Assembly (NCBI RefSeq): GCF_963921235.1
Contig: NC_086097.1
Location: 98,148,001-98,212,000, forward strand
From: Mobula hypostoma
Lineage: Eukaryota
DNA length: 64,000 bases
Reading direction: 5' to 3'
The notes beneath the pieces are model-generated. The model saw only the letters and a program-made list of their open reading frames with translations, did not search any database and was not told the origin of the DNA. A program made the translations under genes and the position numbers. The first letter of the stretch is position 1. Each line of letters begins with the position of its first letter. This document shows positions 2,959 through 58,763 of the stretch, in pieces.

Positions 2959-2982
2959 GCCCAAACGATATTTGGACCAGAG

Positions 2983-3687: not shown

Positions 3688-3710
3688 TGGCTACGGCGGC
3701 TGGCCATCAG
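3660..3710 (+). promoter_or_regulatory. Programmed -1 ribosomal frameshift signal (slippery site plus pseudoknot)
   Basis: G GGA AAC in the gag frame at 3660-3666; 12-bp stem 3672-3683/3694-3705; loop CTGAT pairs with ATCAG at 3706-3710. Confidence 0.85.
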
Positions 3711-6700: not shown

Positions 6701-6749
6701 ACTGTGGACATTGGGGGAGGTATCGCCGGTTCTGGGGGGGGGGGGGTTA
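3660..6749 (+). pseudogene. pol: Gypsy Pol (protease, RT, RNase H, integrase), interrupted
   Basis: [34 protein letters not shown] and integrase core; 1-nt deletion at ~3998-4000; TAG at 5942-5944 and 6098-6100. Confidence 0.93.
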
Positions 6750-7929
6750 TGTGGCGACCCACTTTCTGGCACCCACGAACCGGCTCACGAAACAGCGCGC
6801 GCAGGCAGAGGGCCGGCAGCAAAAAGGGCGCCAGGCCATCTTCACCAGCAGGGGGAAAATCCCGCGTGCAGAAAGGGTCTGGGAATATGCATTCCCCACA
6901 GTAGAACGGGAAGGCTTTAAAGCGGGCCGCGAAGTTTGAATAAATCTCTTTCATCGCAACTCTAACTCACCGACTCCGTGTGGTTATTCTAGCGCTGTGT
7001 GTAGCACATCGCTACAATATTATTATTCTGTACTTTATTATTAGTTAAGTCTGTACACTACTAAGTGTGTTTTTAAATGTTGCTACTGTAATGAAAGAAT
7101 TTCCCAATCAGGATCAATAAAGTACTTCTTATTATTATTATTTTCATCAGTCTTCTTAGTGACCTCTTCAAAAATCTTAATCAAATTAGTGGCGCAGGAT
7201 GTCCCACAGAAAGAGCCCTGCTGACTATCCCTGATCAGCCCCTACATTTCCAAATGTACATGAATCCAATCCCTTAGAATGTTCCTCAATAATTTCCATA
7301 GCACTGATGTGAAATTCACAGACTGCTGGAAGTCCAGTGCTGGAAGAAAGCATTGACTCGATAGGCCAAAATTCTTTTCAAATATTAAAATATTTTTGAT
7401 TGATCACAGGTGAGTACAAAAACACTTTCTAACACAGAAGCACCTTGTATAACTGCGTTCACTCTGATCACACAGGGAATTAATTCTGGAGAATTCATGG
7501 CACCTGGATGTAACAAACACTGACAAAAGAGGGTGCTAAAGTACTTTTAAAATCGTGAATCTGTTTGGAAATGGAGAACCTCTTGAATTACTCATTTGTG
7601 TTGTTCAGGCTGCATAGTGTTGCAGTTCCGGAGACTGGTTCAGGCTGTTTGAAGATTGCCCATTCTACATGTGATCGTCTTTTGTTTCCTCCCACATTTC
7701 AATGAAGAACAGAGAGGCTAATGGGTTATAGTACATTCCCCCTTCGTGCAGACATGTGGCAACAAGAGCCAGAAGACTGTTGACAGGAGATGAGACTGAG
7801 AATAACTATGGGGTAAAGGGAATTAAGGAGGCCGGGACTGGGACCGCTGGAGGACAGCACAGACTCCATGTGTCAAAATTCTTCTCATGAAAATTAATTT
7901 GTGATGGTTATGTAGATGTCAGAGGCACT

Positions 7930-16505: not shown

Positions 16506-19500
16506 AATTCTGGAGGAAATGAGCAGGTCAGGAATAAACAGTCGACATTTTGGGTCCAGATGAAGGGTCTTAGCCAGAAACATTGACCGTGTATTCATAG
16601 ATGCTCTCTGATTTGCTGAGTTTCTTCAGCATTCTGTGCAAGTTACTATTAGAGCTCAGCTCCAGATGCTGTGCCAGCTGGGATCTTCTGGTGGTCAGCT
16701 ATTTTAATTCTATTTTGCATTGCCACACTATAATGTCTGTCCACAGCCTGGATGAAAGCTACGTGTTAAAGAGGACCAGTATCTCATTCTGCCTGGGAAG
16801 TGTCCAACCAGGCAGGACCGACTTTGAATTCTAACTGCTGGTAGTCGCTCCCCCGTCCCTTCTCCCCTTTTTTCCCCCCATTGCTCTCCCCTGCTGATCC
16901 AACTGACCCCCCTTCACCCTTTCTATTCCCCCCCCCCACTCACCCTCACCATCCGCTCGTCACTCCTCCTACTGGCTCTTCAGTCTCCCTCCCTTTACCC
17001 CGTTCTCCATCGTCTTCTCCTATCAAATTCCAGCCTCTTCAGCTCTTTGCTGCTCCCAACTATCACACACTCACCTATCACCTTTTGCTCCACGCCTTTC
17101 ATACCGGCCAGCTCCCCCAACTCAACCCAAAATTTCAACTAACTCTCCATAGACGCTGCCCGACCTGTAGAATTCCTCCAGCACCTTTGTGTGTTGTTTT
17201 GTATGGTGGGAAGAGGTTGGTATAGGACCTTTGAGTTACAAGTGTTAAGTAAGTGCCCATCTCATTCTACCTGGGAAGTATCCAACCAGGCAGTACGGAC
17301 TTTGAATTCTAACTGCTGGTACGCTTCATACCCCTTGCTGAATTTCCTCATAGTCGCTCCAACAATATTAATACATTTTTCTGTGGTTTCTAATTTCTGC
17401 TGCATTTTCTCTAACTCTCTTACTAAATTCCCATGGAGTCCTTATAACCCTTCCCATTAAATTCCCTTGCAATCCCTTAATTACGTTTACTGAATTCCTT
17501 GTTAAACCTCCTATAAATTCCTATTGCAATCCCTGGAATTTTCTTGTTGCAACCACAAACACTCCCACTTGAGTCCTGATAACATTCTAACTAAACTCCC
17601 TTATAGTTCCTCTAGTTCTTCCTAAATGTCCTTTCTATTATGTATTTTAAAAATTTATATAACTACCAATGCTTACTAAATTTCCCTGCAACTTCAATAA
17701 TTCGAAACAAGAACAGAGGGGCACAACGATTCGAAGTATATTTATTATCAAAGTATGTGTACAGTATACAACCCCCAGGTTCGTCCTCTCCACAGACAGC
17801 CACCAAACATAGAAAACTATGGAACTCATTCAAAAAAATCAACACCCCCCACCACATGCAAAAAGAATTGCACAAATGACAACAAAAAAACCCAGCTAAA
17901 AACACAGAATATCAAACACAAAACTGAAAGAGTCCATATTCAGTTCAGTACCTGCAGGACACCCCGATCAAAATCACCCAAAAATAGCAACATGGAAAAA
18001 AAGGAGCAGCCAGGAGTCAGAAACACAGCACAATGAAAACTACAGACAGTGGCGGCGCCAGAGATTTTTTCTTGCTGGTACTACGGAGGGGCTGAATTAT
18101 TCAGTGATGGTGCTGAGGGATGTACTGTATGGTAATATGTATTCGCAAGGCCAGACGCGAGGCGTTAAAAAGTCAGTTTCAAGCATTATGTGCCTACTAT
18201 AAATACCACTGTTGATTCACAAGCAACAGCAATTGATAGATATAATATAGAAGTGAACTGTTACAGTGTCAAAGGCATTGGAAACAACCTGGGCTACACG
18301 GAGCATAAACAACAAAAGCAAACAGAGCATCCGAGCAACAGCAGACAACGTGAATCAGACACCAATCCCACAATCAGCGTCAAATGCGTGCTTTTCAACA
18401 CCAACCCACTGCTATTCGCATTACATAGACAGCAATGCCAAAAGGTATACCGTTATTAAAGTCAAATAAGGCAAACAACAGATGCAAGGCTTTACCAGGA
18501 GTTGGACAAATCGTACTCTGACCATGCAATACCTCAATTAATTCGGCTATTGAATTTAAACAAAAATAAACAGAATCTGCTTGGAAGTCTAAGCAAAACC
18601 AGTAGGCTTAATAGCAGTAAATGTAATATTTTAGGATTTGCAGGAAACATAAGGACTATGGGGTATCCACCACAAAATAGTAACAATAATCAGCATTAGT
18701 CTTGGCCCAAATTTTTTAAGAAATCAACTGCACTCACCATTAATGTTTTCAGAGAAGCACAATCCGTCTGTTGTTGTGATCGTGGGCAACAGAGTTTGAA
18801 AAGAAGTTGTAAAGCAGCTGCACAGTTTCAAAAAACTCACCCGCTCGTGATACATTGTTCACAACATCCACTAACACAAGATTAAGTCTGTGAGCATGGC
18901 AGTGTATATATAATGCCTGCGGGACCTCTTTCCTGAACCTCTCTTGTACCCTGTTATTGCACCCAGAGATCACTGCCACCCCGTCATAACACTGACCTAT
19001 ACACGCGTTCTTATCAATAACACACTGGGCAAGTGTCTGTTCAATGCTTTTAAGAAGCGACTCTGCGTCCAACCCTTCTGCTGGAGTGAAGTGCAAGAAT
19101 TCTTCAAGCACTGTTTCGTTACTCAAATACCGCACCACCACTGATATTTGCTCCTTTTTACTCAAGTCTTTACTTTCATCCACCATGATGGCAAAATATC
19201 CAGCCTCCTTGATTTCTGCACGTATTTGACGTCTGACCATATCTGCCATAACACCCATAATTTCATTTTGGATATCGTGATGGGTGTTTTTTGCATTTCC
19301 AGGGTTTTCCTCTTGTTTTTTAGCTACAGTCTTATCAAACTTCCCAATTACAGTGAGCAACTCAACAAAGTTTCCCCTATTGCCAGATCCATCATTCTCC
19401 CGGTGTCCTCGCTGGGCAAAGCCTTGGCTCGCAGTACAGCGCAGAGACCCAACCACTGCTCGCATATACTCACGATGTTCTTGGACAATCTTTGCATGTC

Positions 19501-20096
19501 CTTTATCAAGCATATTTCCCAGTCTTGCACCGTCTTGTTTTCTCAATCTGACTTCGGCCCGCGCCTCCATCGCAAACTTATGGGCCGCACTGACACGGTG
19601 GGTTTTGAAAGCTGCTGTCGCTTTCCGCCAGTTGCGGTAACCGGAGACTCAGAATGGAGCCCATGTCCTCCACGCAGGAAATGCCTGCGTGCCAAGCAGA
19701 ATATTCAAACCAGCCACGAATAAAACTCCTTTGCTGATTGCCAGACAGTTCCTCAGGCTGCCGGCGAACAGTATTCCCACTCGCACTGAGACCTTCTCTT
19801 CCCAATCCCGCTCCATTTCCTGTCCCGATCCTCCTCCGATGAACCGCTGCCGTCCTGCATCTCACTTTCCACTCAGACCGGCTCAGGCTGATCCCTCTGG
19901 ATGAGCTCGGCCTCTGACTGACAACCGACCCATTTTTCACGCCCGCCAAAATCGCGCACGTGCCGGGCCCGCGCTCGCGTGTAAAAGCACCACGTGCGCG
20001 TGTGGCATCGGTTCGTCTCGCGAGGCCACGGATCTGCGCCTGGGTGCACTCCCGCGTGAGTGACGTCACCACCTTACGTGATCTTAGATCAGCTGA

Positions 20097-24011: not shown

Positions 24012-25079
<1,068 letters not shown>

Positions 25080-31790: not shown

Positions 31791-32950
31791 ATAGAAACAT
31801 AGAAACATAGAAAATAGGTGCAGGAGTAGGCCATTCGGCCCTTCGAGCCTGCACCGCCATTTATTATGATCATGGCTGATCATCCAACTCAGAACCCAGC
31901 CTTCCCTCCATACCCCCTGACCCCTGTAGCCACAAGGGCCATATCTAACTCCCTCTTAAATATAGCCAATGAACTGGCCTCAACAGTTTCCTGTGGCAGA
32001 GAATTCCACAGATCCACCACTCTCTGTGTGAAGAAGTTTTTCCTAATCTCGGTCCTAAAAGGCTTCCCCTCTATCCTCAAACTGTGACCCCTCGTTCTGG
32101 ACCTCCCCAACATCGGGAACAATCTTCCCGCATCTAGCCTGTCCAATCCCTTTAGGATCTTATACGTTTCAATCAGATCCCCCCTCAATCTTCTAAATTC
32201 CAACGAGTACAAGCCCAGTTCATCCAGTCTTTCTTCATATGAAAGACCTGCCATCCCAGGAATCAATCTGGTGAACCTTCTTTGTACTCCCTCTATGGCA
32301 AAGATGTCTTTCCTCAGATTAGGGGACCAAAACTGCACACAATACTCCAGGTGTGGTCTCACCAAGGCCTTGTACAACTGCAGTAGTACCTCCCTGCTCC
32401 TGTACTCGAATCCTCTCGCTATAAATGCCAGCATACCGTTCGCCTTTTTCACCACCTGCTGTACCTGCATGCCCACTTTCAATGACTGGTGTATAATGAC
32501 ACCCAGGTCTCGTTGCACCTCCCCTTTTCCTAATCGGCCACCATTCAGATAATAATCTGTTTTCCTATTTTTGCCACCAAAGTGGATAACTTCACATTTA
32601 TCCACATTAAATTGCATCTGCCATGAATTTGCCCACTCACCCAACCTATCCAAGTCACCCTGCATCCTCTTAGCATCCTCCTCACTGCTAACACTGCCAC
32701 CCAGCTTCGTGTCATCCGCAAACTTGGAGATGCTGCATTTAATTCCCTCATCCAAGTCATTAGTATATATTGTAAACAACTGGGGTCCCAGCACTGAGCC
32801 TTGCGGTACCCCACTAGTCACCGCCTGCCATTCTGAGAAGGTCCCGTTTATTCCCACTCTTTGCTTCCTGTCTGCCAACCAATTCTCTATCCACATCAAT
32901 ACCTTACCCCCAATACCGTGTGCTTTAAGTTTGCACACTAATCTCCTGTT
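31791..32950 (-). mobile_element. Young CR1 LINE 3' portion with an open RT frame
   Basis: Uninterrupted 349-aa ORF 31889-32938; (ttctatgt)n tail; near-identical to ~56835-57992. Confidence 0.96.
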
Positions 32951-35032
32951 CTAAGGAGATATGTTCTAAGTACTCCCTCAGATCCCCTCTAAGCTGCTAA
33001 CCTATACTCTCTTAGACAACACCAAGAGAAAAAAGTATTTTACTATCTATCCTATTTATCTCCCTCATCATTTTAGATACTTCTATCAGGTCAGCTCTCA
33101 GCCTCCTCTGCTTCACATCAGAATTAAGCCAGCCTAGCCAATCTCTCCTTCTAACTGAAATGCTCTAATCCAGGCAACATCCTGATGAATCCACATCATC
33201 TCCCCTCCAAAAGGAAGGGTATATCCATTATGGCACACCAAGATTATTAATTATGGTTTTAATTTCCTTACCTAATAAAAAGATATACTTGATGCAGAGA
33301 GCAGTGAAGGTGCACAGGACTCGGTCCTGGGATGGTTGATCTAGATGTGAAACATACAAAATTACTGGATATCTAAACAGGGAAGTTGTAGGTGGGATCA
33401 TTCGTTGGAATCTACAGTTAGAGTCACAGTTCATAATAAAAGCTACGCCGTTATTATGGAAACAGGCAGATTTGGAATTCTGTGCCCCTGAAGGATGTGG
33501 GGCTGAGCTAAGATTGCTTGGAAAGTAGAAACTTACTAATTTCTAGATTTATCAGGAAGTCAGACATGTGTGGTACAAGATCAGCTATAACTGTGCTGAA
33601 TTTTCAGATTTGAGGGCCTCAGGCAATCTGCAGAGGAACTCAGTAGGTCATGCAGCATCTGTGGAAGGTAAGTTTGACATTTTGAGTTGAAATCATACAT
33701 TGGGGCGGGGGGAATGGTGTTTTCCTCCAACAGATTGTCTGTTGCTCCAGATTTCAGTGTTTAGTCTCTTGTATCTGCATTTGAGGGTCTGTTCCTGATT
33801 CTATCTATGTAATGATTTGATCTGTATAAGCTTTTCACTGTATCTTGGTACATGACAATAATAAACCTACACCAATCTGTGAATGTTGTATATTTAAGAT
33901 TGTACGACTGCTGGCAAATCCTGCAGCAGCTAAACCCCCTAGTCTGGAAACCTGCTCCCAAGAGGTTAGAGGGAGATGGATTCAGAACAAAAATGGAGAA
34001 TAGATCTTCTGAATCCACTCCCCACTATCAAACTCCTTTCCTGAGACTCAAGACCAGGAACTGAATCGAGACCATAGAACAAGAGGAACTGGATCAGGCT
34101 TAAAATAAACGATCGTTCAGTCTTTTTTTAAAAAATAATCTTGTCCTAGTTTCCAACTGCCTATAAAGTAGATTTAGTTAGACTTCGGGATTAGTTTATC
34201 TGTGCTACCAGCTAAGCTAGTTGAGATTGTTCTACTGTATTCCCCATCAGGAAGAGACTGTAATGGTAACACTGTTAAAGGTGCTGTGTACATACATCTA
34301 TTGATGCTCCTGGACACATCTTCAGTGATGTTCCTGGAATCATCGGGTGTTTCGGGTCTTTCAACATCATACAACCTCCTCCAGGTGACCAGCTGGGGTT
34401 GATCAGACCCCAGCTTGTGTCCAGATGGCTATTCCCCATCAGGAAGAGATTGTAATAATAACACTGTTAAGGGTCATAAATTGTAATGGGAAGTTCTCTA
34501 TTAATTTTAATCTCTAATAAATGGTTCATCAGAACACCAGCTCATGGTTTACAATTCATAGTATTCAAAAATTGCTGAACTCGGCTGTGGGTTGGGGTTG
34601 CTCAGTTTTGAGGTCAACAACCTCCCAAAGGTAATCGACAATACACAGGATGACTACAATGCATCTTCCATACAACAGAATTAATCCTCTATTTGTAAGG
34701 CACTGGGGAGTATAATTCATTTGGCCACAAATATTATCTACAAAGAAACAGACAAAAATACAGGAAATAAACACTGGTGCACCCTTGGAACACGGGTCCT
34801 TTATTGCTGTTAGTTCTGTACAGAGGTGAAATCAGAGCAATTGAGCTGCTCCAGGGATCATTCTACATATCAGCGATTCATGCAATTCTTATCCCTTCTC
34901 TCTGAAATGCATAGTTTAATGCAAGCTGCCTCATGCATCTAGAAAACATATAGCACTGGTATTCCATTAAAAAAAAAATCAAATAACAAATTTAGACAGC
35001 AGAATGTTTTATAAACCCAGTGAAACACAGCT

Positions 35033-35038
35033 TTTATT
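35033..35038 (-). terminator. Distal poly(A) signal AATAAA (candidate)
   Basis: tttatt on +; followed on - by GT/T-rich sequence. Confidence 0.55.
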
Positions 35039-37484
35039 GAACAGACAAATTTGAGGACTGAGGCAGTGTGCTCCAATATAGCACTTGATTACACCAGCTC
35101 GAATCAGGCACTACACATGACTTGTACAAAGGGAAACCTGGGACTGAATGTAGTCAGCTGGCTGCGCATTAAGCTTTATGTGGACAGCTGCATCAAGCAC
35201 CAGGTTACCATCAGTGAAGCTTCCCATCCCGACTTTTGAACAGATCAACTTGTAGCAGACGTCACTGATGGGGATTTGCAAACACACCAGCAATTACCTC
35301 AGAAGGGATGTTTAAAAAAATAATAAAATGCATTGTTTCTAACAAAATATTAATCCAGACAGATTACACATGTCCTAAAATATGGAAGAGGCACTTCTAA
35401 ATATATTGAGTAATTTCTTTAAAAAAAATAAAAACAGGAGCTAATGCAGCACTGATAACGGTTTAGAGCCCCCAGGAAACTATAGACTAATTGGTTTACA
35501 AGTGCAGAGTAATGATTCACACTAAAGGAGAAACCAAAAATTGAATTATCAGTGAATTAAAAAAATTGGAAATTTAAAATGGAGAGAAAACACTGGAAAT
35601 ACACGACATTTATGGGAAAATACTAACTTTTCCAAGTGGCTGAACCTGCTGAGTATTTCCAGTCTTTTCTGTTTCCACAATGAAGTCAGCACAAATTCAA
35701 CCTGAAACCTTCCTCAACCAAAAATATCAAAGTGGACAAGGAATATATATTTGTAATTAATTTAGATTTCAGTAATAGCCGTAATGGATTAATAAGAAAG
35801 AGGACAAGTGACAGAATCAATAGGTCTAGCTGCTTCCAGGTGGTGGACGACTGGAGATGAGTGTCAGTCCTCCGGAATGGTTGTGCATAATGATTTATAC
35901 TTCGGACTTGAAAACAATTTCCAAATTTCCAGATGACACTGAATAAACTGCTGAGGGTTAGTCAATTTTTGAAGAAAAACAAAAACACCACCTCTAAAGA
36001 GTCCTGAAAATAATGAAGGATTTTATTGTAGAGAAAGGAATGGCTCCTCTGGTGAGGAAGGCCAGATGCCTTGTGAAAAGGCAGCCACTGAGCACTGAGC
36101 ACTCACTAAAGGGAAAAGCCAAAAGCCTAATGAGCTAGGACAGCAATGCAAGAATGCCTCCACATACTGGTGTCTCTCTCAGTGGCTATGGTGAGTGCTG
36201 GAAATGTACCAGATTTTACCCAATTTCACCAGCTCTGGGAAACCGGGAAACAGGGAGGGAGAGATCCCCACCACTAGAAAAAATGGAACCCAGCTAATCC
36301 CGCTCCTCAGAGTGAAGGGGGGGGGGACTCACCACCTGGGAAAGCAGAACATCTTTAAATCGCCAGTTAGGGAGAACAGATGCACTATCTGCAGTCTGGG
36401 AAAAAGACATAACATACACCCCTCAGTGAGCAGAAGTGTTCTCAACCTTGCCACTACAAGAACCCGGGCTGGCTTAGAAAAATTCTGCGGTACAGATCCA
36501 CGGCTCCTGATCAGCAAGAATGGACAGGGTAGAAGTAGTTGGTGCCCGACTGAGAGGGAGAGCTGTATAAAGACACAAACGCTTGCGAGGCAAAACAAAC
36601 TGGCAGCTGAATGACCATGGAGGAAACTGCTGGTAAAATTATACTAAACACAGAACCAGTGCCTGACTCAGAGCTGGTGCCTCAGCCCCATACAATCACT
36701 GTCCTACCAGCTCAATACCTCGCCCTCTCTGTCTCCTGAAACACAATCAGCTTTGCTGGCTGGACAGCAAACAGGATGGTACATCTGCCATACATTTTAA
36801 TTCCTATTGCTCAGTGTGTTATGCAGTGGACAGGTTTTGTTACAGACTTGGCTATTGTATACGGTACATTTGTGAACATGCAGTTTTGAAGACGTGGCCC
36901 CCTTTTCCCCAGGTTCTTATGATCAGTCCAAGGCTCTGCCAGCATCTAGCAGAGATTTTCCACGCGGGCTCCAGCTGCCTGCACTTAAATCAATGTGGCG
37001 ATGAGCCTCAAACATAATGGACAGCAACCTTTGCTAAACTGGGCGAACACCTGGCTCATGAAGGAGGAGCATTTAGAGTCTAAGAAGTGTGCTGTACTCA
37101 GGACTGAACTTCTTGGGATCGCTTGCTCTGGGTCGTATCCATTAAGACCGTTGTCCCACATTTGTCCTTTTCCCAGTTCTGAGACAGGCTCCTCCTGGCG
37201 TTGGAGCGATGACTGCCAAGAACCAGCCAAGCATTTAGATCCTTGTCAGCCACAGATATTGCTGCTGAACTTGTACCAGCCAAATATAGAGATATCCCAG
37301 TCCTTTTAAAGTCAAGGTTTCCAGGATTAGATGATAGCCTGTACCAGAATAACTCGGTTGAGGTCCGTTTGGTCATTCTACAGCCAGTTCCTTTGGAGGC
37401 CTTCCTCTCTTATACCGTACAGCATTACTAACACACATACAACAGTTATTGCTTCTAATGGCAGATACTCTAAAATCATATGGC

Positions 37485-37490
37485 TTTATT
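37485..37490 (-). terminator. Proximal poly(A) signal AATAAA (candidate)
   Basis: tttatt on +; GT-rich tgttgtatgtgtgtt lies downstream on -. Confidence 0.55.
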
Positions 37491-38776
37491 TGCATTTTAG
37501 TGTGACTACAATTTGTGCTAAGAGTTTCATTTGCAGTTGAAACCCAGGAGGTATTTAAAAATCTTATTCAAAGCAGAATTGTTTTGCAAAGCACTATTTT
37601 TAAAAAAGAAAAGGGACTGTAGTATTAATCTGACCTTCGTGAAGTTAGTCTCAGTTAGCATGAAGGATGTTTCAAGACAGGGTTGTGTGATTAACTGCTT
37701 CAAAGCCTCCAGATGCTGAATAAATGGCACTCAAATCCACCCTCATCACGACAAAGGATCAAGAACAAGCAAAGTAAATGATGACAAATCAGCATTCTGT
37801 GTATGTACGCTGTATTGGAGAACCAGCGTTAAAAGCACTACCAACCAGCCAGCTCGAGGCACAGCTCTCAAAAAAATGTCAAACGCAAAAGGCTGTTCGA
37901 GAAACCCTCTTTAAGATCCCTTCATGTGGCAGATTCACCGTCATGGGCAGCTTTCACCTTTTCCCCATTCCAAATTTACTTTAAAAAAAAAATCAAGGCC
38001 CATTTCCGAGCAAAGGTCTTTTCCTGGGAAGCCCTGCAGAATCCAGTGTCAGGCTGCAAGGTGGTAGGAAACCACTCCAAACCTATGACAGAGCTGCGTG
38101 GTAGATGGATTTACTGCTGGACACAGTACTGTGAACTCTACACATAGTGGGTCTCCAAACAACAAGATGTGTGGACAAAGGATAATGTGGTGCCTAAACT
38201 CCCCTCATCAGTCACATACCCCTCTCTTCCTTGCACAAACAAGTCACCAAGAGGATGTAATTTTTAGATTTCTTATGCATAAAGTTTTGAAATGTCAGTG
38301 GTATTATTTTCAGAAGCTAATTGTTCATATCTGTGTTACACATCACTTTGTTCGTGGACTGGGAAACTGGATGTTCACTTGCTCCAGGTGTTGGGCCAGA
38401 CACTCCCACCAGCAAGATCACCCCTCCCGCTTCACTCCCAACTCACTAGGTTTTCTGAACATCCATATAAGGAATCATTGCCTTCCCCAAAGCAAGCAGT
38501 GGCCTATCTGAACCATCGACATTTCATTGCAAAGCCAAAGCTCAAGAGATGGAGAGACTGAAAGAATGGGTATGAGGTCATCCTGAATCCCTCAAACCAG
38601 TCTGCTGTTTAAACCTGAATTCTGGTTAGTTCATTAAGCTAAACCCCACTTAAAAAAAAATATTTTCGGTTAAACTGCTCATGGCAAGCTCTGCTAACCT
38701 CATGCACTGCCTCTAAAGTTTGGCACTACAGCTGCTACTGAAGCACTAAAGTGGCGTGGAACTATACATCTCCAAA

Positions 38777-38802
38777 TGGAAGACATTGGTGATTTTGTTG
38801 TT
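38777..38802 (-). promoter_or_regulatory. Extended miR-7 complementary site (TDMD trigger)
   Basis: Pairs with miR-7 nt 1-8 and 11-24 (UGGAAGAC UA GUGAUUUUGUUGUU), leaving a 2x4-nt central internal loop. Confidence 0.95.
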
Positions 38803-38853
38803 CTGTTTTTTCTCTTAAAAAAACTCGTCGTGACACATCTTTTCACGTTATAA

Positions 38854-38862
38854 TATTGCACA
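38854..38862 (-). promoter_or_regulatory. miR-25/92 family 8mer site (TGTGCAATA)
   Basis: tattgcaca on +; ~50 nt 5' of the miR-7 site in the transcript. Confidence 0.7.
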
Positions 38863-38982
38863 GCCCGAACTTTTACCTAAATGAATACTAAAAATTAAAA
38901 AATAAATGCAAGTCTAAAAGATCTAAAAAAAATAGGGGTTGGGGAGGGGAAAGGGTAGCACTCTACTCTACCAATACTGCAC

Positions 38983-38990
38983 TATATACA
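38983..38990 (-). promoter_or_regulatory. Pumilio response element TGTATATA
   Basis: Matches UGUAHAUA; a PRE-like TGTATAG is at 38768-38762. Confidence 0.5.
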
Positions 38991-41299
38991 ACAGCCCAAA
39001 TCCTCTCCGGTCCCAATGCGACTATTATAGCTATCAAAGGGCTTGAAATCAACACAGACCAGTTCCAGGAAAGCTCATTTAAAGCAGACTACCCAGACAA
39101 CCCGCCGTTTGAACCTGACACCCTGCCCCACAGTACACAGCTTGCTTCAAACTGGAGCATGTGACTGAAGAAAGTTTATCTATATATTTACGCATTTCTC
39201 CCCCTGCCCCACTGTGGATTAGGGCTGACGTGGTGCTTGGACATCCAGTGGGAATCAAAGTTGCTTACAGTGTTTTGTCAGACACTGAGCTCCAAGATGG
39301 TGCACACTGGTCTCGGCAGATGTCCCGCACTGCTCGGTCTGAGAGCAGAATCTGAACCCACAACTCTTGAAACTGAACAGATCTCTTGATTTTGGATGCT
39401 AGAATATAGGGAGAACAACTCAAATGGAAGGCACAGATTTCCCTCAAGAATTCAGAAAAGTCTTCGCGGATATCTTGTCTTGGTTAGGAACGACCACCGT
39501 TTCTTCCTCTACACACTCATGGCTTTGCCTAACCCACTCTTCCAATGGCCACGAGCTCAGCTCTCACCTTTCCCAGCTCTAATTTTGACTTACATACCAA
39601 GCGACAATTGCAGTGTGCCAAAAGGTGTGTGTGAGAAGGGGGGAGGGGGAAAACACAGTGCTCCATAATGTACCAACCAGTCTTTTCACTTGGCACTCGA
39701 CTGCCTGTCAATTGAGAGACTGCAAGCAGAAAATGCTGCAAACACACAGTCCAAAGGAGAAGAGCCTGCATCTGTGGCAAGAGCACTGATAAAAACTTGC
39801 AGTGTGCCTGCAGTATTTTGAGCTACAGCTCTGAAGGGTTTGGGGGGAGTTAATCGACACTCTTACGCTGAAGCAAGGGTGATGGGCATTTCAAAGGGCG
39901 GAGGGAGATTACGTCCCATCTCATTACCAGAGAGCCTCCTCTTTGATCTCATGGGCTAACCTGAACTCGGTGCAATCCTAGACACTCAACTCACAAACTG
40001 AGTCAGCGGTCAAATGGCTGCACGCCTGGGAGCTGGAGTTTTCCCAAAAAGGGAGGGAAGTCACCACTGCAAATTTAGCGACAGACAGACAAGGGCCTGT
40101 GACTAAATACAAGGGAGACATTGTTCCAGATGCTCGCTGCCCAATTGTCTCTGAAGGAAACGGTGCCGCGGTGCACAACGATGCAAAGCTGCAACAGGTC
40201 AGGCGCTAGCCTCTGCCTCCGGTGACTGGGACAGCACACTGAACCTGCCACAGGCCAAGACGGGAACATGATGATGAGACTTTAAATGACCATTCGCATG
40301 AAGATCAGTAACTTGAATTTCAGCAGAAGGGCACCTCGAGAACAATTCAGTTCAGCCAGTCTAGGTCATTCCTCAGCACAGGCGTGGCGTGGAACTTTGA
40401 TCTGCCACCTTCTGGCATTAAGCTAATCATTGGCATTAAATCTGGGCAGTCCTGACTTGCAGGAAAAGGAACTCAACAACTAGTACAATTGCTGGATCTC
40501 TTCACGAGGTACACAGGAAGGAGTGATTTCAAACAGCAGCACCTTTTGTTTGAATGGTAATGTTGGGGCAGGGGATGGAATGGCGGGGTGCTAGCAGGTC
40601 TTCGTGCGGCTCAGAGTCAACGGTGGACACCACTATTTCTCAGGGATGGTAATCATGGAGAGAAAGCTGAAGCCAAACGTGGACAGCTGTTAATCCAGGC
40701 CTCTTCAGGTCGCACTGTCTCTTACAACCAAAAGAGGAAGAGAGAGGGTGTGTTGATGCAGTGTCTGTCTTGTGACAGCAAATCTGACACCGTCGTTTCA
40801 GCCATGAAGGGTTTTGGAGTGCAGATCTCAAACTTCTGGTCCAGCAACAGCAAGGAGTCACCAACCTGAATTCGAAAACAAAAAAAAATATGCAGGTAAC
40901 AATCAGTAATGGATTCTGCAAAGCTTCTGTCCCGCTGACCTCCACAGAAACATAAAGGGGCTACGGGGAGAGCAAAGGATTCAGGCTTGGGGTGATTGAA
41001 GAGTCCAGGGAGAAGGAAATCAGGGTGAGGTGAGCAAGGGTGCAGTGGGGTAGTCAGTGAGGGCTGGGAGGTGACAGGAGCAGGAAGTCGGGGTTAGGAA
41101 GTGTATGAATCAGTAGACATGAGGAGGACAGAATATTGGAGCTCAGACAGGGGGTGGCTTACCAGGAGAGAAATGTGGGTCCGGGAGGGGATGGTCTCGG
41201 AACGGGGTCAGAGGAGAGTAGCAGTTCAGGGGAGGTTGAGAATGAGGGACTGGAGGGGGAGAGGGGTGCAGGGTCTAAAGGAGGGGCTGAGGTGGCAGT

Positions 41300-44052
41300 A
41301 GAGAGGAAATCCGGAGGAGGTGGTAGGGAGGGAATCCGAAGGAGGTTGTAGGGAGGGAAACCGGAGGAGGGGGTTCGGGAGGTTGTAGGGAGGGTATCCG
41401 GAGGAGGGGGTTCGGGAGGCGGTAGGGAGGGTATCCGGAGGAGGGGGTTCGGGAGGAGTAGGGAGGGTATTCCAGAGGAGGGGGTTCGGGAGCCGGTAGG
41501 GAGGGTATCCAGAGGAGGGGGTTCGGGAGCCGGTAGGGAGGGTATCCGGAGGAGGGGGTTCGGTAGGCAGTAGGGAGGGTATCCAAAGGAGGGGGTTTGG
41601 GAGGCAGTAGGGATGGTATCCAGAGGAGGGGGCTCGGGAGCCAGTAGGGAGGGTATCCAGAGGAGGGGATTCAGGAGGCGGTAGGGAGGGTATCCGGAGG
41701 AGGGGGTTCGGGAGGCGGTAGGGAGGGTATCCAGAGGAGGGGGTTTCGGGAGGAGGTAAGGAGGGTATCCGGAGAAGGGGGTTCAGGAGGCGGTAGGGAG
41801 GGTATCCGGAGGGGGTTCGGGAGGCGGTAGGGAGGGTATCCGGAGCAGGAGGAGGTTCGGGAGAAGGTAGGGAGGGTATCCGGAGGAGGAGATTCGGGAG
41901 GAGGTAAGGAGGATATCCAGAGGAGGGGGTTCAGGAGGCAGTAGGCAGGGTATCCAGAGGAGGGGGTTCGACAGGCGGTAGGGAGGGTATCCGGAGGAGG
42001 GGGTTCGGGAGGCGGTAGGGAGGGTATCCGGAGGAGGGGGTTCGGGAGGCGGTAGGGAGGGTATCAGGAGGAGGGGGTTCGGGAGGCGGTAGGGAGGGTA
42101 TTCCAGAGGAGGGGGTTCGGGCGCCGGTAGGGAGGGTATCCAGAGGAGGGGGTTCGGGAGCCGGTAGGGAGGGTATCCAGAGGAGGGGATTCGGTAGGCA
42201 GTAGGGAGGGTATCCAGAGGAGGGGGTTTGGGAGGCAGTAGGGATGGTATCCAGAGGAGGGGGCTCGGGAGCCGGTAGGGAGGGTATCCAGAGGAGGGGG
42301 TTCAGGAGGCGGTAGGGAGGGTATCCGGAGGAGGAGGAGGTTCGGGAGAAGGTAGGGAGGGTATCCGGAGGAGGAGATTCGGGAGGAGGTAAGGAGGATA
42401 TCCAAAGGAGGGGGTTCAGGAGGCAGTAGGCAGGGTATCCAGAGGAGGGGGTTCGACAGGCAGTAGGGAGGGTATCCGGAGGAGGGGGTTCGGGAGGCGG
42501 TAGGGAGGGTATCTGGAGGAGGGGATTTGGGAGGCGGTAGGGAGGGTATCCGGAGGAGGGGATTCGGGAGGCGGTAGGGAGGGTATCCGGAGGAAGGGTT
42601 TCCGGAGGAGTAGGGAGGGTATCCGGAGGAGGGGATTCGGGAGGCGGTAGGGAGGGTATCCGCAGGAGGTTCAGGAGGCGGTAGGGAGGGTATCGGAGGA
42701 GAGGGTTTGGGAGGCGGTAGGGAGGGAATCCAGAGGAGGGGGTTCGGGAGGAGTAGGGAAGGTATCCAGAGGAGGGGGTTCAGAAGCTGGTAGGGAGGGT
42801 ATCCGGAGGAGGGGGTTTGGGAGGAGCAGGGAGGGTATCTGGAGGAAGGGGTTCGGGAGGCGGTAGGGAGGGTATCCTGAGGAGGGTTTTGGGAGGCGGT
42901 AGGGAGGGTATCCGGAGGAGGGAGTTCGGGAGACGGTAGGGAGGGAATCCGGAGGAGGGGGTTCGGGAGGAGTAGGGAGGGTATCCGGAGGAGGGGGTTC
43001 GGGAGGCGGTAGGGAGGGTATCCGGAGGAGGGGGTTTGGGAGGCGGTAGGGAGGGTATCCAGAGGAGGGGATTCGGGAGGCGGTAGGGAGAGTATCCGGA
43101 GGAGGTTCAGGAGGCGGTAGGGAGGGTATCCGGAGGAGGGGGTTTGGGAGGCGGTAGGGAGGGTATCCAGAGGAGGGGGTTTGGGAGGAGCAGGGAGGGT
43201 ATCCGGAGGAGGGGGTTCGGGAGGCGGTAGGGAGGGTATCCTGAGGAGGGGTTTCGGGAGGCGGTAGGGAGGGTATCCTGAGGAGGGGGTTCGGGAGACG
43301 GTAGGGAGGGAATCCAGAGGAGGGGTTTCGGGAGGAGTAGTGAGGGTATCCGGAGGAGGGGGTTCGGGAGGCGGTAGGGAGGGTATCCGAGGAGGGGGTT
43401 CGGGAGGCAGTAGGGAGGGTATCCGGGAGGAGGGGGCTCGGGAGGCAGTAGGGAGGGTATCCGGAGGAGGGGGTTCGGGAGGCGGTAGGGAGGGAATCCA
43501 GAGGAGGGGGTTCGGGAGGAGTAGGGAGGGTATCCGGAGGGTATCCAGAGGAGGGGGTTCGGGAGGCGGTAGGGAGGGTATCCGGAGGAGGGGGTTCGGG
43601 AGGCGGTAGGGAGGGAATCCGGAGGAGGGGGTTCGGGAGGAGTAGGGAGGGTATCCGGAGGAGGGGGTTTGGGAGGCGGTAGGGAGGGTATCCGGAGGAG
43701 GGGGTTCGGGAGGCGGTAGGGAGGGTATCCAGGAGGAGTAGGGAGGGTATCCGGAGGAGGGGGTTCGGGAGGCGGTAGGGAGGGTATCCGGGAGGAGTAG
43801 GGAGGGTATCCGGAGGAGGGGGTTCGGGAGGGTATCCGGGAGGAGTAGGGAGGGTATCCGGAGGAGGGGTTCGGGAGGCGGTAGGGAGGGTATCCGGGAG
43901 GAGTAGGGAGGGTATCCGGAGGAGGGGGTTCGGGAGGCGGTAGGGAGGGTATCCGGAGGAGGGGGTTCGGGAGGGTATCTGGGAGGAGTAGGGAGGGTAT
44001 CCGGTGGAGGGGGTTCGGGAGGCGGTAGGGAGGGTATCCGGAGGGGGTTCGG
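41300..44052. repeat. G-rich minisatellite, ~37-bp unit, roughly 75 copies (intron 1 of the lncRNA)
   Basis: Unit GGAGGCGGTAGGGAGGGTATCCGGAGGAGGGGGTTCG with length variants. Confidence 0.97.
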
Positions 44053-44059
44053 GTCAGGG

Positions 44060-44500
44060 GAGTCGGCTCGGTCACATGACAACTCCACTCCCAGAATGCC
44101 GCGCGCGGCGAACGTGCCGCCGACCCTCACCTGCCGCCCCGGGGCCGCGCTCCCGCCGCCGTCCCGAACGCACTTTCCCGCCCCTCCGCCGTTCGCCATT
44201 CCTCCGCCACGGTCCAGCTTCCCACTCCAGCTGCAGCTTCGCATCTCTTCCCCGCTACCCTTTCGCCGCCATCTTCACCTCTGCTCAACCCGCCCGCCCC
44301 CGGATGGGGCGCACGCCCAGGGCGTCTGCGCGCTGCCACCTTCACTCCCATTGGCTGGTGTCCACATCAATCACTCTGTCTTCAGCCATGCCTTGCGCCC
44401 ATTGGCTGTGACGATTTTCAGACTCTCATTGGACGAGACTGTTGGCAATGCCTTCAGCTGGGGAACCGCGATAACTCCAACCGCCGGCGGCCGCTCGCCC
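44060..44500 (-). promoter_or_regulatory. CpG-island promoter / first exon
   Basis: CpG-dense; CCAAT on - at 44350-44354, 44401-44405 and 44428-44432; GC box 44289-44300; YY1-type AAGATGGCGGCG 44275-44264. Confidence 0.82.
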
Positions 44501-47500
44501 CGACCGGCCTGAGACCCACACCCAAACCCGGGAGCACCCACCCGCTCCTACCGGCCCACACCCACACCCACACCCAAACCCGGGAGCACCCACCCGCTCC
44601 TACCGGCCTGAGGCCCACACCCGGGAGCACCCACCCGCTCCTACTGGCCCGAGGCCCAGACCCGGGAGCACCCACCCGCTCCTACCGGCCTGAGGCCCAC
44701 ACCCACACCCGGGAGCACCCACCCGCTCCTACCGGCCTGAGGCCCACACCCACACCCAAACCCGGGAGCACCCACCCGCTCCTACCGGCCCACACCCACA
44801 CCCAGACCCGGGAGCACCCACCTGCTCCTACCGGCCCACACCCACACCCAAACCCGGGAGCACCCACCCGCTCCTACCGGCCTGAGGCCCAGACCCGGGA
44901 GCACCCACCCGCTCCTACTGGCCTGAGGCCCACACCCACACCCAGACCCGGGAGCACCCACCCGCTCCTACCGGCCTGAGGCCCAGGCCCACACCCACAC
45001 CCAGACCCGGGAGCACCCACCCGCTCCTACCGGCCTGAGGCCCAGGCCCACACCCACACCCAGACCCGGGAGCACCCACCCGCTCCTACCGGCCCACACC
45101 CACACCCAGACCCGGGAGCACCCACCCGCTCCTACCGGCCCACACCCACACCCAGACCCGGGAGCACCCACCCGCTCCTACCGGCCTGAGGCCCACACCC
45201 ACACCCGGGAGCACCCACCTGCTCCTACCGGCCTGAGGCCCACACCCACACCCAAACCCGGGAGCACCCACCCGCTCCTACCGGCCCACACCCACACCCA
45301 GACCCGGGAGCACCCACCTGCTCCTACCGGCCCACACCCACACCCAAACCCGGGAGCACCCACCCGCTCCTACCGGCCTGAGGCCCAGACCCGGGAGCAC
45401 CCACCCGCTCCTACCGGCCTGAGGCCCAGACCCGGGAGCACCCACCCGCTCCTACTGGCCTGAGGCCCACACCCACACCCAGACCCGGGAGCACCCACCC
45501 GCTCCTACCGGCCCACACCCACACCCAGACCCGGGAGCACCCACCCGCTCTTACCGGCCCACACCCACACCCAAACCCGGGAGCACCCACCCGCTCCTAC
45601 CGGCCTGAGGCCCACACGCACACCCAGACCCGGGAGCACCCACCCGCTCCTACCGGCCTGAGGCCGAGGCCCACACCCACACCCAGACCCGGGAGCACCC
45701 ACCTGCTCCTACCGGCCTGAGGCCCACACCCACACGCGGGAGCACCCACCCGCTCCTACCGGCCCACACCCACACCCGGTAGCACCCACCCGCCCCGACC
45801 GGCCCACACCCACACCCGGGAGCACCCACCCGCCCCGACCGGCCTGAGGCCCACACCCACAGCCAAACCCGGGAGCACCCACCCGCTCCTACCGGCCTGA
45901 GGCCCACACCCAGACCCGGGAGCACCCACCCGCTCCTACCGGCCCACACCCACACCCAGACCCGGGAGCACCCACCCGCTCCTACCGGCCTGAGGCCCAC
46001 ACCCAGACCCGGGAGCACCCACACCCAGACCCGGGAGCACCCACCCGCTCCTACCGGCCTGAGGCCCACACGCACACCCAGACCCGGGAGCACCCACCCG
46101 CTCCTACCGGCCTGAGGCCCACACCCACACCCAGACCCGGGAGCACCCACCTGCTCCTACCGGCCTGAGGCCCACACCCACACGCGGGAGCACCCACCCG
46201 CTCCTACCGGCCCACACCCACACCCGGTAGCACCCACCCGCCCCGACCGGCCCACACCCACACCCACACCCGGGAGCACCCACCCGCCCCGACCGGCCTG
46301 AGGCCCACACCCACAGCCAAACCCGGGAGCACCCACCCGCTCCTACCGGCCTGAGGCCCACACCCAGACCGGGGAGCACCCACCCGCTCCTACCGGCCCA
46401 CACCCACACCCACACCCAGACCCGGGAGCACCCACCCGCTCCTACCGGCCTGAGGCCCACACGCACACCCAGACCCGGGAGCACCCACCCGCTCCTACCG
46501 GCCTGAGGCCCACACCCACACCCAGACCCGGGAGCACCCACCTGCTCCTACCGGCCTGAGGCCCACACCCACACGCGGGAGCACCCACCCGCTCCTACCG
46601 GCCCACACCCACACCCGGTAGCACCCACCCGCCCCGACCGGCCCACACCCACACCCGGGAGCACCCACCCGCCCCGACCGGCCTGAGGCCCACACCCACA
46701 GCCAAACCCGGGAGCACCCACCCGCTCCTACCGGCCTGAGGCCCACACCCAGACCCGGGAGCACCCACCCGCTCCTACCGGCCCACACCCACACCCAGAC
46801 CCGGGAGCACCCACCCGCTCCTACCGGCCCACACCCACACCCAAACCCGGGAGCACCCACCCGCTCCTACCGGCCCACACCCACACCCAAACCCGGGAGC
46901 ACCCACCCGCTCCTACCGGCCCACACCCACACCAGACCCGGGAGCACCCACCCGCTCCTACCGGCCTGAGGCCCACACCCAAACCCGGGAGCACCCACCC
47001 GCTCCTACCGGCCTGAGGCCCACACCCAAACCCGGGAGCACCCACCCGCTCCTACCGGCCTGAGGCCCACACCCACACCCAAACCCGGGAGCACCCACCC
47101 GCTCCTACCGGCCTGAGGCCCACACCCACACCCAAACCCGGGAACACCCACCCGCTCCTACCGGCCCACACCCACACCCAAACTCGGGAGCACCCACCCG
47201 CTCCTACCGGCCCACACCCACACCCAAACCCGGGAGCACCCACCCGCTCCTACCGGCCTGAGGCCCACACCCACACCCAAACCCGGGAGCACCCACCCGC
47301 TCCTACCGGCCTGAGGCCCACACCCACACCCAAACCCGGGAGCACCCACCCGCTCCTACCGGCCTGAGGCCCACACCCACACCCACACCCAGACCCGGGA
47401 GCACCCACCTGCTCCTACCGGCCCACACCCACACCCAGACCCGGGAGCACCCACCCGCTCCTACCGGCCTGAGGCCCACACCCAGACCCGGGAGCTCCCG

Positions 47501-47905
47501 CTCCTACCTGCCTGAGGCCCACACCCAGACCCAGGAGCACCTGCTCCTACTGGCCTGAGGCCCACACCCACACCTGGGAGCTCACGCTCCTACCGGTCTG
47601 AGGCCCACACCCACACCCGGGAGCTCCCACCCACTCCTACCCGCCTGAGGCCCACACCCACACCCGGGTGCACCCACCCACTCCTACTGGCCTGAGGCCC
47701 ACACCCAGACCCGGGAGCTCCCACCCACTCCTACCTGCCTGAGGCCCACACCCAGACCCGGGAGCACCCGCTCCTATTGGCCTGAGGCCCACACCCAGAC
47801 CCGGGAGCACCCGCTCCTACCGGCCTGAGGCCCACACCCAGACCCGGGAGCACCCACCCGCTCCTACCGGCCTGAGGCCCACACCCAGACCCGGAGGAGC
47901 CCACC
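44500..47905. repeat. C-rich minisatellite, ~41-59-bp modular unit, roughly 70 copies
   Basis: Unit CCGGGAGCACCCACCCGCTCCTACCGG(CCTGAGG)CCCACA(CCCACA)CCCAGAC. Confidence 0.97.
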
Positions 47906-48149
47906 TGCTCCGCACTGTCCACTTTCCCCCAGACCCAGGAGCCGCTCGTTAGAGGAGAGCATTACCTCAATGCACAGACTGCCGGCTGTACCCTAATGCT
48001 GCCTCACTACCAATGTGGACCTTGTTTCTGATCACGACAGCAAAGCTCTGCTAAACGGTTTATTCCAGTATAAACTTTAACCCAACCGGTGTGAGCCAGG
48101 CTGCAGATTGGTTACCACGGTTATCTTGACAATATCTCTTACCAACCTA

Positions 48150-55700: not shown

Positions 55701-57992
55701 GAGAGTGACGTAGTTAATTCACAAACAAAGGTTCTGAGAGTGACGTAGTTAATTCAGAAACAAAGGTTCTGAACTTAAAGAGGGGTAACTTTGAAGGTAT
55801 GAGACGTGAATTAGCTAAGATAGACTGGCAAATGACACTTCAAGGATTGACGGTGGATATGCAATGGCAGGCATTTAAAGGTTGCATGGATGAACTACAA
55901 CAATTGTTCATCCCGGTTTGGCAAAAGAATAAATCAAGGAAGGTAGTGCACCCGTGGCTGACAAGAGAAATTAGGGATAGTATCAATTCCAAAGAAGTAG
56001 CATACAAATTAGCCAGAGAAAGTGGCTCACCTGAGGACTGGGAGAAATTCAGAGTTCAGCAGATGAGGACAAAGGGCTTAATTAGGAAGGGGAAAAAAGA
56101 TTATGAGAGAAAACTGGCAGAGAACATAAAAACGGACTGTAAAAGCTTTTATAGATATGTAAAAAGGAAAAGACTGATAAAGACAAATGTAGGTCCCCTG
56201 CAAACAGAAACAGGTGAATTGATTATGGGGAGCAAGGACATGGCAGACCAATTGAATAATTACTTTGGTTCTGTCTTCACTAAGGAGGACATAAATAATC
56301 TTCCAGAAATAGTAAGGGACAGAGGGTCCAGTGAGATGGAGGAACTGAGCGAAATACATGTTAGTAGGGAAGTGGTGTTAGGTAAATTGAAGGGATTGAA
56401 GGCAGATAAATCCCCAGGGCCAGATGGTCTGCATCCCAGAGTGCTTAAGGAAGTGGCCCAAGAAATAGTGGATGCATTAGTGATAATTTTTCAAAACTCG
56501 TTAGATTCTGGACTAGTTCCTGAGGATTGGAGGGTGGCTAATGTAACCCCACTTTTTAAAAAAGGAGGGAGAGAGAAACCGGGGAATTATAGGCCGGTTA
56601 GCCTAACGTCGGTGGTGGGGAAACTGCTGGAGTCAGTTATCAAGGATGTGATAACAGCACATTTGGAAAGCGGTGAAATGATCGGACAAAGTCAGCATGG
56701 ATTTGTGAAAGGAAAATCATGTCTGACGAATCTCATAGAATTTTTTGAGGATGTAACTAGTAGAGTGGATAGGGGAGAACCAGTGGATGTGGTATATTTG
56801 GATTTTCAAAAGGCTTTTGACAAGGTCCCACACAGGAGATTAGTGTGCAAACTTAAAGCACACGGTATTGGGGGTAAGGTATTGGTGTGGGTGGAGAATT
56901 GGTTAGCAGACAGGAAGCAAAGAGTGGGAATAAACGGGACCTTTTCAGAATGGCAGGCGGTGACTAGTGGGGTACCGCAAGGCTCAGTGCTGGGACCCCA
57001 GTTGTTTACAATATATATTAATGACTTGGATGAGGGAATTAAATGCAGCATCTCCAAGTTTGCGGATGACACGAAGCTGGGTGGCAGTGTTAGCAGTGAG
57101 GAGGATGCTAAGAGGATGCAGGGTGACTTGGATAGGTTGGGTGAGTGGGCAAACTCATGGCAGATGCAATTTAATGTGGATAAATGTGAAGTTATCCACT
57201 TTGGTGGCAAAAATAGGAAAACAGATTATTATCTGAATGGTGGCCGATTAGGAAAAGGGGAGGTGCAACGAGACCTGGGTGTCATTATACACCAGTCATT
57301 GAAAGTGGGCATGCAGGTACAGCAGGCGGTGAAAAAGGCGAACGGTATGCTGGCATTTATAGCGAGAGGATTCGAGTACAGGAGCAGGGAGGTACTACTG
57401 CAGTTGTACAAGGCCTTGGTGAGACCACACCTGGAGTATTGTGTGCAGTTTTGGTCCCCTAATCTGAGGAAAGACATCTTTGCCATAGAGGGAGTACAAA
57501 GAAGGTTCACCAGATTGATTCCTGGGATGGCAGGTCTTTCATATGAAGAAAGACTGGATGAACTGGGCTTGTACTCGTTGGAATTTAGAAGATTGAGGGG
57601 GGATCTGATTGAAACGTATAAGATCCTAAAGGGATTGGACAGGCTAGATGCGGGAAGATTGTTCCCGATGTTGGGGAGGTCTGGAACGAGGGGTCACAGT
57701 TTGAGGATAGAGGGGAAGCCTTTTAGGACCGAGGTTAGGAAAAACTTCTTCACACAGAGAGTGGTGAATCTGTGGAATTCTCTGCCACAGCAAACTGTTG
57801 AGGCCAGTTCATTAGCTATGTTTAAAAGGAAGTTAGATATGGCCCTTGTGGCTACAGGGGTCAGGGGGGTATGGAGGGAAGGCTGGGTTCTGAGTTGGAT
57901 GATCAGCCATGATCATAATAAATGGCGGTGCAGGCTCGAAGGGCCGAATGGCCTACTCCTGCACCTATTTTCTATGTTTCTATGTTTCTATA
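55701..57992 (+). mobile_element. Young 5'-truncated CR1 LINE with an open RT frame
   Basis: ORF from 55799 stays open through the whole RT domain; (ttctatgt)n tail; inserted in the older CR1 ORF1. Confidence 0.96.
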
Positions 57993-58763
57993 TTGGTACC
58001 AACAGCCTGGGTAGGAAAAGGGATGAGGTTCTGAAGAGAGAATATAGGAAGTTAGGAAGAAAGCTGAAAAGCAGGACCTCCAGGGTAGTAATCTCTGGAT
58101 TGCTGCTTGTGCCATGTGCCAGTGAGAGTAAGAATGGGATGATTTAGCAGATGAATGTGTGGCTGAGGAATTGGTGCAGGGGGCATGGTTTCAGATTTCT
58201 GGATCATTAGGTATCTTCTGTGGAAGGTATGACCTGTACAAAAACAGATGGGTTGCACCTCAACACCAGGGGGTCCAATATCCTTGTGGGCAAGTCCGCT
58301 AGAGCTGCTGGGGAGGGTTTAAACTAATGTGGCAGGGGATGAGAACCAGAGTGAGATATGGCTGAGAATGGACTAGTTGGTTTACAGTGCACAGTAGATC
58401 CAGAAAGGACAGGCAGATGATAGGGCCAAGTTTCACAGCAATGAGTTGGAGTGTAACATGGGGCAAAATCAAAAAGGATGATGAATACAGGAGTAAAGGT
58501 GTTATATTTCAATGCACCCAGTATATGGAATAAGGTCAATGATCTTGTAGCACAGTTAGAGACTGGCAGATGTTACGTTGTGGCCATCACTGAGTTGTGG
58601 CTGAAAGAAGATCATAGTCGGTAACTTATCATCCAAAGATACATATTGTATCAAAAGGACAAGCAGGCAGACAGGGTGGTGGCTTGGTTCCTGGTAAAAT
58701 ATAAAATCAAATCCTTAGAAAGTGATATCAGGAAGGGAAGATGAGGGTAAAGTTAAGGGTAAA

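Follow-up and report, generated by a model that had tools for sequence, protein, structure and literature searches.

Cyrano is known from mammals, where it also bears the names OIP5-AS1 and Oip5os1, and from zebrafish, whose cyrano is reportedly due to Ulitsky in 2011. In the available text on these animals, the RNA is long, spliced, polyadenylated and non-coding, and has its miR-7 site in the terminal exon; there is a single site, in which a loop at nt 9-10 of the microRNA separates an 8mer seed match from 14 contiguous 3′ pairs (10.1101/279687). The mouse and human site is described there as bringing about a multiple-turnover, ZSWIM8-dependent destruction of miR-7, for which the 8mer and the 3′ pairing are both needed, and the loop at nt 9-10 of the duplex should prevent slicing. 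Other triggers of target-directed degradation (TDMD) combine, as Cyrano and the locus described below do, a seed match with extensive 3′ pairing and an unpaired centre; these include NREP/libra (miR-29), Serpine1 (miR-30) and BCL2L11 (miR-221/222). A non-coding position within a conserved block and a dependence on ZSWIM8, which would also apply to the ray locus, are common to them in the text available of PMC10899785. According to the same text, these triggers act on different microRNAs and mostly from sites in the 3′UTR of an mRNA, whereas in Cyrano, a dedicated lncRNA, the 3′ pairing is the longest.

The conservation of Cyrano was analysed with LncLOOM (PMC7798263). The elements named in the available text of that paper are an AUGGCG micro-ORF at the 5′ end, UGUGCAAUA, two miR-7 blocks, UGUAUAG, WGCAUGA, CUAUGCA and GCAAUAAA, a poly(A) signal that in the literature doubles as a miR-137 site. 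UGUGCAAUA is placed ∼60 nt 5′ of the miR-7 site in all 18 species, the Rbfox motif ∼55 nt 3′ of the Pumilio element, and the miR-153 seed match ∼100 nt before the poly(A) signal; the AUGGCG at the extreme 5′ end of Cyrano is described as conserved, as opening a short ORF and as having a YY1 ChIP signal. Seven elements, UGUGCAAUA among them, are reported in all 18 species including the elephant shark, and nine in all species except the shark. A later review, of 2026, takes the two elements missing from the elephant shark to be the miR-7 site; according to that review, sharks lack this site and Cyrano originated in bony vertebrates (PMC13125240). In the text available of Kleaveland (10.1101/279687), Cyrano is instead 'broadly conserved in vertebrates', and its emergence is linked to the vertebrate amplification of mir-7. 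Within the literature searched, the LncLOOM paper and the 2026 review are the only sources that bear on the question of a cartilaginous-fish Cyrano, and a 20-nt string of the site described here was not found in the text of that literature.

The DNA analysed (the window) is a stretch of 64 kb, C1:98148001-98212000 of a 3.48-Gb assembly. One of its plus-strand exons (24693-25079) encodes a Methyltransf_16 domain whose 21 named relatives are, without exception, elasmobranch 'EEF1A lysine methyltransferase 3-like' proteins, with 98% identity in Mobula hypostoma, 91% in M. birostris, 86-87% in sawfish and stingray, and lower values in skates and sharks. Since its relatives are elasmobranch only, the genome is that of a myliobatiform ray, in agreement with an earlier note on this DNA, which had called it cartilaginous-fish-like. 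That note had also claimed that the minus strand at 38777-38802 pairs with miR-7 nt 1-8 and 11-24 around a small central loop, and had read this as the hallmark of Cyrano. Re-reading and folding showed the first claim to be exact. When the pairing was computed with the 24-nt mature miR-7 of the same genome (mir-7 locus L002), nt 11-24 formed 14 contiguous pairs and nt 1-8 formed eight, on either side of a 4 × 2 internal loop in which four target nucleotides face nt 9-10 of the microRNA. The 8mer, the 14 contiguous 3′ pairs and the position of the loop are those of the published architecture, as far as the available text gives it, and the second claim is supported. The site forms a duplex of –28.6 kcal/mol, where a perfect complement would reach –36.7; 2000 shuffled sites gave –7.2 ± 2.1 kcal/mol, the best of them reaching –21.8. 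The sense-strand context of the site has no significant structure (z 0.33), with most of the site unpaired in the centroid; on this value, the idea of a structured element there was rejected.

A search of public runs with positions 38300-39300 found all the sampled words in four small runs of one organism (A), labelled 'RNA?'. DNA runs of organism A were found as well, and three related organisms had runs with 0.67, 0.67 and 0.32 of the words. Contigs from three of the organism-A runs (X2, X3 and X4) and from one run of organism D (X19) were then mapped onto 33000-41300. X2, X3 and X4 rendered one contig each, of 6160, 6146 and 6138 nt and with word depths of 81, 156 and 222, which align to positions 34774, 34886 and 34777 (respectively) through 40868, in all three cases with no differences and no gaps. 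Beyond 40868 they extend for another 65, 163 and 46 nt of sequence that does not follow on directly in the genome. Within the X3 continuation, 30 letters are an exact and unique match to window positions 44134-44163 (plus strand), and positions 40866-40868 (cag in the RNA sense) are common to the end of exon 1 and the end of the intron. This continuation, together with the 3-nt overlap, defines a GT-AG intron at 44130-40866 in the minus-strand sense; the splice junction, in turn, means that the contigs derive from RNA, and from the minus strand. As the public runs are labelled 'RNA?' and are available as contigs, the strand assignment relies on the GT-AG intron together with the poly(A) signal instead of strand-specific reads. 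Thus, the minus-strand transcript that the reading of the earlier note calls for is present over the site, as spliced contigs, in three of three organism-A runs. In the organism-D run X19, exon 2 had no coverage at ≥90% likeness, which says nothing either way.

The minus-strand RNA is therefore spliced, with two exons and a length of ∼6.26 kb (6258 nt), and has the miR-7 site in its terminal exon (Table 1). The 5′ end of exon 1 is the end of a contig, and hence a minimum, as contigs cannot show where transcription starts. At the other end, the contigs of two of the three runs stop 25 nt (X2, 34774) and 22 nt (X4, 34777) past the poly(A) signal. The longest ATG-initiated ORF in the 6258-nt transcript has 92 codons' worth of protein (92 aa), and a Pfam search at E ≤0.01 with ten sense stop-to-stop ORFs (all those of ≥70 aa that overlap exon 2) matched no family; the ray Cyrano RNA is without protein-coding potential. 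Long, spliced, polyadenylated and non-coding, with its site in the terminal exon, it resembles the mammalian and zebrafish transcripts in the features that the available descriptions give. It differs from them in having two exons, the 2026 review placing the site in the third exon (PMC13125240), and in length, ∼6.3 kb as compared with ∼8 kb in the mouse according to the available text of 10.1101/279687. A further difference is that GC-rich minisatellites fill intron 1 and the upstream flank. The region with three CCAAT boxes and a GC box, from its position just 5′ of the end of the RNA contig, would be the promoter.

Table 1. Features of the ray Cyrano locus and of its 3′ neighbour (positions in the window)
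Feature	Position	Strand	Remarks
Putative miR-7 degradation-trigger site	38777..38802	–	Minus-strand reading AACAACAAAATCACCAATGTCTTCCA, 38802 down to 38777
8mer seed match of the site	38777-38784	–
3′ pairing block of the site	38789-38802	–	14 nt; 4-nt loop CAAT between this block and the seed match
Exon 1	44131..44296	–	At least 166 nt; 5′ limit given by 163 nt of the X3 contig past the junction
Intron 1	40866..44130	–	3265 nt; GT donor 44130-44129, AG acceptor 40867-40866
Exon 2 (terminal)	34774..40865	–	6092 nt; miR-7 site ∼2.06 kb in
Putative core promoter	44290..44432	–	CCAAT at 44428-44432, 44401-44405 and 44350-44354; GC box 44290-44300
AUGGCG upstream ORF	44255..44272	–	MAAKG-stop, within AAGATGGCGGC; ATG at 44272, 25 nt from the contig 5′ end
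miR-25/92 seed match UGUGCAAUA (DNA TGTGCAATA)	38854..38862	–	Starts 60 nt before the start of the miR-7 site
Pumilio element UGUAUAG (DNA TGTATAG)	38762..38768	–	8 nt 3′ of the miR-7 site
Rbfox motif UGCAUGA (DNA TGCATGA)	38700..38706	–	55 nt past the end of the Pumilio element
miR-153 seed match CUAUGCA (DNA CTATGCA)	34908..34914	–	107 nt before the poly(A) signal
Two further Rbfox motifs	34931-34937, 34878-34884	–	Flank the miR-153 seed match
Poly(A) signal GCAAUAAA (DNA GCAATAAA)	34800..34807	–	LncLOOM conserved element
Minisatellite, 37-bp unit	41341..44048		∼69 copies; G-rich on the plus strand; inside intron 1, most of its length
Minisatellite, 46-bp unit	44496-47911		∼71 copies; just upstream of the promoter
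EEF1AKMT3-like (Methyltransf_16) gene	24012-24122, 24693-25079	+	Converges on the Cyrano 3′ end

The sequence around the start of the upstream ORF, AAGATGGCGGC, is one that we take to be a YY1 consensus. The ORF itself has five codons, as compared with two to three in the known Cyrano RNAs described in the available text of PMC7798263. Like mammalian and zebrafish Cyrano, as far as these are described, the ray RNA has, besides this 5′ AUGGCG micro-ORF, the miR-25/92 seed match, the Pumilio and Rbfox elements, the miR-153 seed match and GCAAUAAA, all at a like spacing. The chain of named elements is complete and in the published order, with successive spacings of 60, 8, 55 and 107 nt where the LncLOOM text has about 60, adjacent, about 55 and about 100; this check covers the elements that the available text names, one element being unnamed there that lies within the core of ∼67 nt over which human and zebrafish Cyrano can be aligned. 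The joint chance of finding the flanking motifs within ±15 nt of the published spacings is ∼1.6 × 10–15, given the base composition. The similarity to Cyrano that the earlier note expected in the flanks of the site is thus found, in the order and spacing of published motifs and not by alignment. Another cartilaginous-fish Cyrano, that of the elephant shark, was curated for LncLOOM (Ross et al. 2021, PMC7798263). It is without two of the nine elements, which the available text does not name, while the ray has every element that is named there, the two being compared by description.

On this evidence, the minus-strand stretch from 44296 to 34774 is very probably the ray orthologue of Cyrano (OIP5-AS1), whose site would trigger a ZSWIM8-dependent degradation of miR-7. 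That it would be a genuine orthologue, as the earlier note had proposed, is supported by its motifs, spacing and architecture, which were compared with those given in the papers, not aligned. The architecture of the site, the spliced, non-coding minus-strand RNA, the ordered motifs and the presence of INO80 on the 5′ side all speak for this identity. The link to the Cdr1as circuit that the note gives for mammals does not apply here, as Cdr1as is described, in the text available, as specific to eutherians; unlike in the mammalian circuit, no Cdr1as partner is expected outside that group.

The partners that such a degradation would require are present in the genome. The 23-mer of mature miR-7, as printed in the literature, occurs exactly three times in the assembly, each time in a full-length Rfam mir-7 hairpin (85, 76.5 and 76.4 bits), and in all three genes it is followed by T, rendering an identical 24-nt mature form. 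A ZSWIM8 gene is encoded at C63:4780569-4783059, with two TPR_ZSWIM8 exons (113.7 and 57.7 bits) in open frames; a search for the SWIM domain had no matches among 97 candidates, which is uninformative for a short domain split over exons. The TDMD components are therefore all encoded: an expressed trigger, three mir-7 genes and a ZSWIM8 gene. From these conserved parts, TDMD of miR-7 would be expected to operate in the ray. AGO-loaded miR-7 would bind the Cyrano site, and the extensive 3′ pairing, with a centre left unpaired and so not sliced, would give AGO a conformation recognised by the ZSWIM8 cullin-RING ligase. AGO would then be ubiquitinated and degraded, and the exposed miR-7 destroyed, while Cyrano would be spared for multiple turnover. 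The miR-25/92, Pumilio, Rbfox, miR-153 and miR-137/poly(A)-signal elements may tune how abundant or how effective the trigger is, in line with what has been proposed for bony vertebrates.

A true Cyrano orthologue might also carry a site that acts mainly as a decoy or regulatory element, titrating miR-7 or being repressed by it without any ZSWIM8-dependent degradation. We regard this as improbable. Retargeted Cyrano-type sites in a synthetic context in 293T are indeed described, in the available text, as inhibiting a microRNA without clearly engaging ZSWIM8, and the literature searched holds no data on miR-7 degradation from any cartilaginous fish. However, the ray site is, letter for letter, of the TDMD architecture described as working in mouse and human; the genome encodes ZSWIM8; and the accessory motifs are kept at their published spacing, which argues for selection on the same function.

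As another reading, the miR-7 complement might have arisen by chance, or by convergence, in an unrelated lncRNA. Partial complements of this kind do occur in this genome: a short pattern, in which a gap separates 9 nt of 3′ pairing from a 7-nt seed match, had 77 matches, compared with 21 for a reversed control, and a dispersed repeat carries one by chance. Against this reading, the AACAACAAAATCACCAATGTCTTCCA pattern, with up to three mismatches, occurs once in the two strands of the 64-kb window and in none of 100 dinucleotide-preserving shuffles of it, and base composition gives an expected count of 2.1 × 10–11 for the 26-mer. An extended pattern, in which 0-8 nt separate 13 nt of 3′ pairing from a 7-nt seed match, had four matches in the assembly: the ray site and, on their antisense strands, the three mir-7 genes. 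Those antisense strands aside, no second extended miR-7-complementary site was found in the 3.48 Gb. When 10 of the 77 short-pattern loci were inspected (Cyrano and nine others), the pairing at the other nine stopped at 9-11 nt, and the Cyrano flanks sought there were found at none. With the ordered motifs flanking the ray site and INO80 as its neighbour also arguing against it, a coincidental match is hardly credible. A second Cyrano-like locus was likewise rejected, the nine other loci inspected being without extended pairing or common flanks. The dispersed repeat carries CAAAATCACTCAGAGTCTTCC, a 7mer-m8 miR-7 seed match with 9-11 nt of 3′ pairing and a duplex energy of about –22 to –25 kcal/mol; the identical 21-mer accounts for 22 of the 77 short-pattern matches, examples being L009 (C1:100054802-100054822), L010, L007 and L012.

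That the match might be the remnant, or the antisense strand, of a fourth and decayed mir-7 gene, rather than a target site, can practically be dismissed: its plus strand necessarily resembles miR-7 with a 2-nt insertion, and vertebrates typically have four mir-7 paralogues (PMC13125240) where three were found here, but Rfam recorded no mir-7 in the window at the gathering threshold or in 38500-39100 at E up to 10, the folding of the plus strand is no better than that of its shuffles (z 0.29), the RNA covering the site is a 6-kb spliced minus-strand transcript, and the flanks hold Cyrano-specific motifs. A decayed mir-7 hairpin was rejected on the Rfam result and this z value. The search of the window at the gathering threshold gave no match to Cyrano either, and the sole match in 38500-39100 was a chance riboswitch (E 0.8).

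If the locus is read as Cyrano, the miR-7 site, its fixed-spacing companions (miR-25/92, Pumilio, Rbfox, miR-153 and poly(A) signal) and the AUGGCG micro-ORF probably predate the split between cartilaginous and bony vertebrates. The claims that sharks lack the site and that bony vertebrates are where Cyrano originated (PMC13125240) would then be wrong, or valid only for the elephant-shark lineage, in which the site would have been lost or altered. For a ray, the locus contradicts the statement of absence; being complete and expressed, it makes that statement fail for elasmobranchs. An early date would fit the link between the origin of Cyrano and the amplification of mir-7 in vertebrates that is put forward in the available text of 10.1101/279687. 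Among the known endogenous triggers of microRNA degradation, Cyrano is the most potent, and its age sets that of the circuit controlling miR-7. A cartilaginous-fish Cyrano is not new in kind, since that of the elephant shark had already been curated by LncLOOM, and the ray locus offers no new mechanism; its value lies mainly in dating and in correcting the literature. The ray copy also provides a distant sequence with which to spot the flanking elements that are truly invariant, which would be candidates for the efficiency of Cyrano.

On the 3′ side, the ray gene lies tail to tail with the EEF1AKMT3-like gene, and not with OIP5. This neighbour closes a tandem cluster that has 10 or more copies over ∼1.2 Mb (C1:96.99-98.17 Mb). 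On the 5′ side of Cyrano, INO80, recognised by its DBINO exons, lies 213 kb past the window on the opposite strand, and further along the same contig are NUSAP1 (1.53 Mb away), NDUFAF1 (1.57 Mb away) and RTF1 (6.7 Mb away). NUSAP1 and NDUFAF1 lie together at C1:99737212-99777636; the NDUFAF1 match has one in-frame TGA, which may be an intron. A Yippee-Mis18 search for OIP5 found nothing near Cyrano and one match on another contig (C18), a result that is uninformative for a short domain split over exons. In human, the order is presumably INO80, EXD1, CHP1, OIP5-AS1, OIP5, NUSAP1, NDUFAF1, RTF1. Set against this order, the ray neighbourhood agrees only in part: the INO80 side, with INO80 on the strand expected, seems to be conserved, and the OIP5-NUSAP1 block seems to have moved relative to Cyrano, which suggests a rearrangement that separated the two. 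With OIP5 not found near ray Cyrano, linkage between them would not belong to the conserved module, and OIP5-AS1 is not a fitting name for a gene that here does not lie antisense to OIP5.

Some further observations were made on the composition of the window. Two GC-rich minisatellites of opposite strand skew flank the 450-bp stretch that holds the Cyrano promoter and exon 1, and these arrays, with units of 37 and 46 bp, are the cause of the GC and skew anomaly of the window. Just 3′ of the poly(A) site, short segments within 33554-34661 reached a very high summed depth, and contigs that fit only in part were numerous there in all RNA-type runs, a pattern typical of an abundant transcribed interspersed repeat. 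The window is also rich in mobile elements, located at 2866-6904 and 55718-58147 on the plus strand and at 31889-32950 and 18749-19648 on the minus strand. They include a pol of the Ty3/gypsy type, with RVT_1, RNase H and an integrase zinc domain; an 809-aa LINE reverse-transcriptase ORF, of which a near-identical partial copy is also present; and an ORF resembling a DUF4371 transposase.
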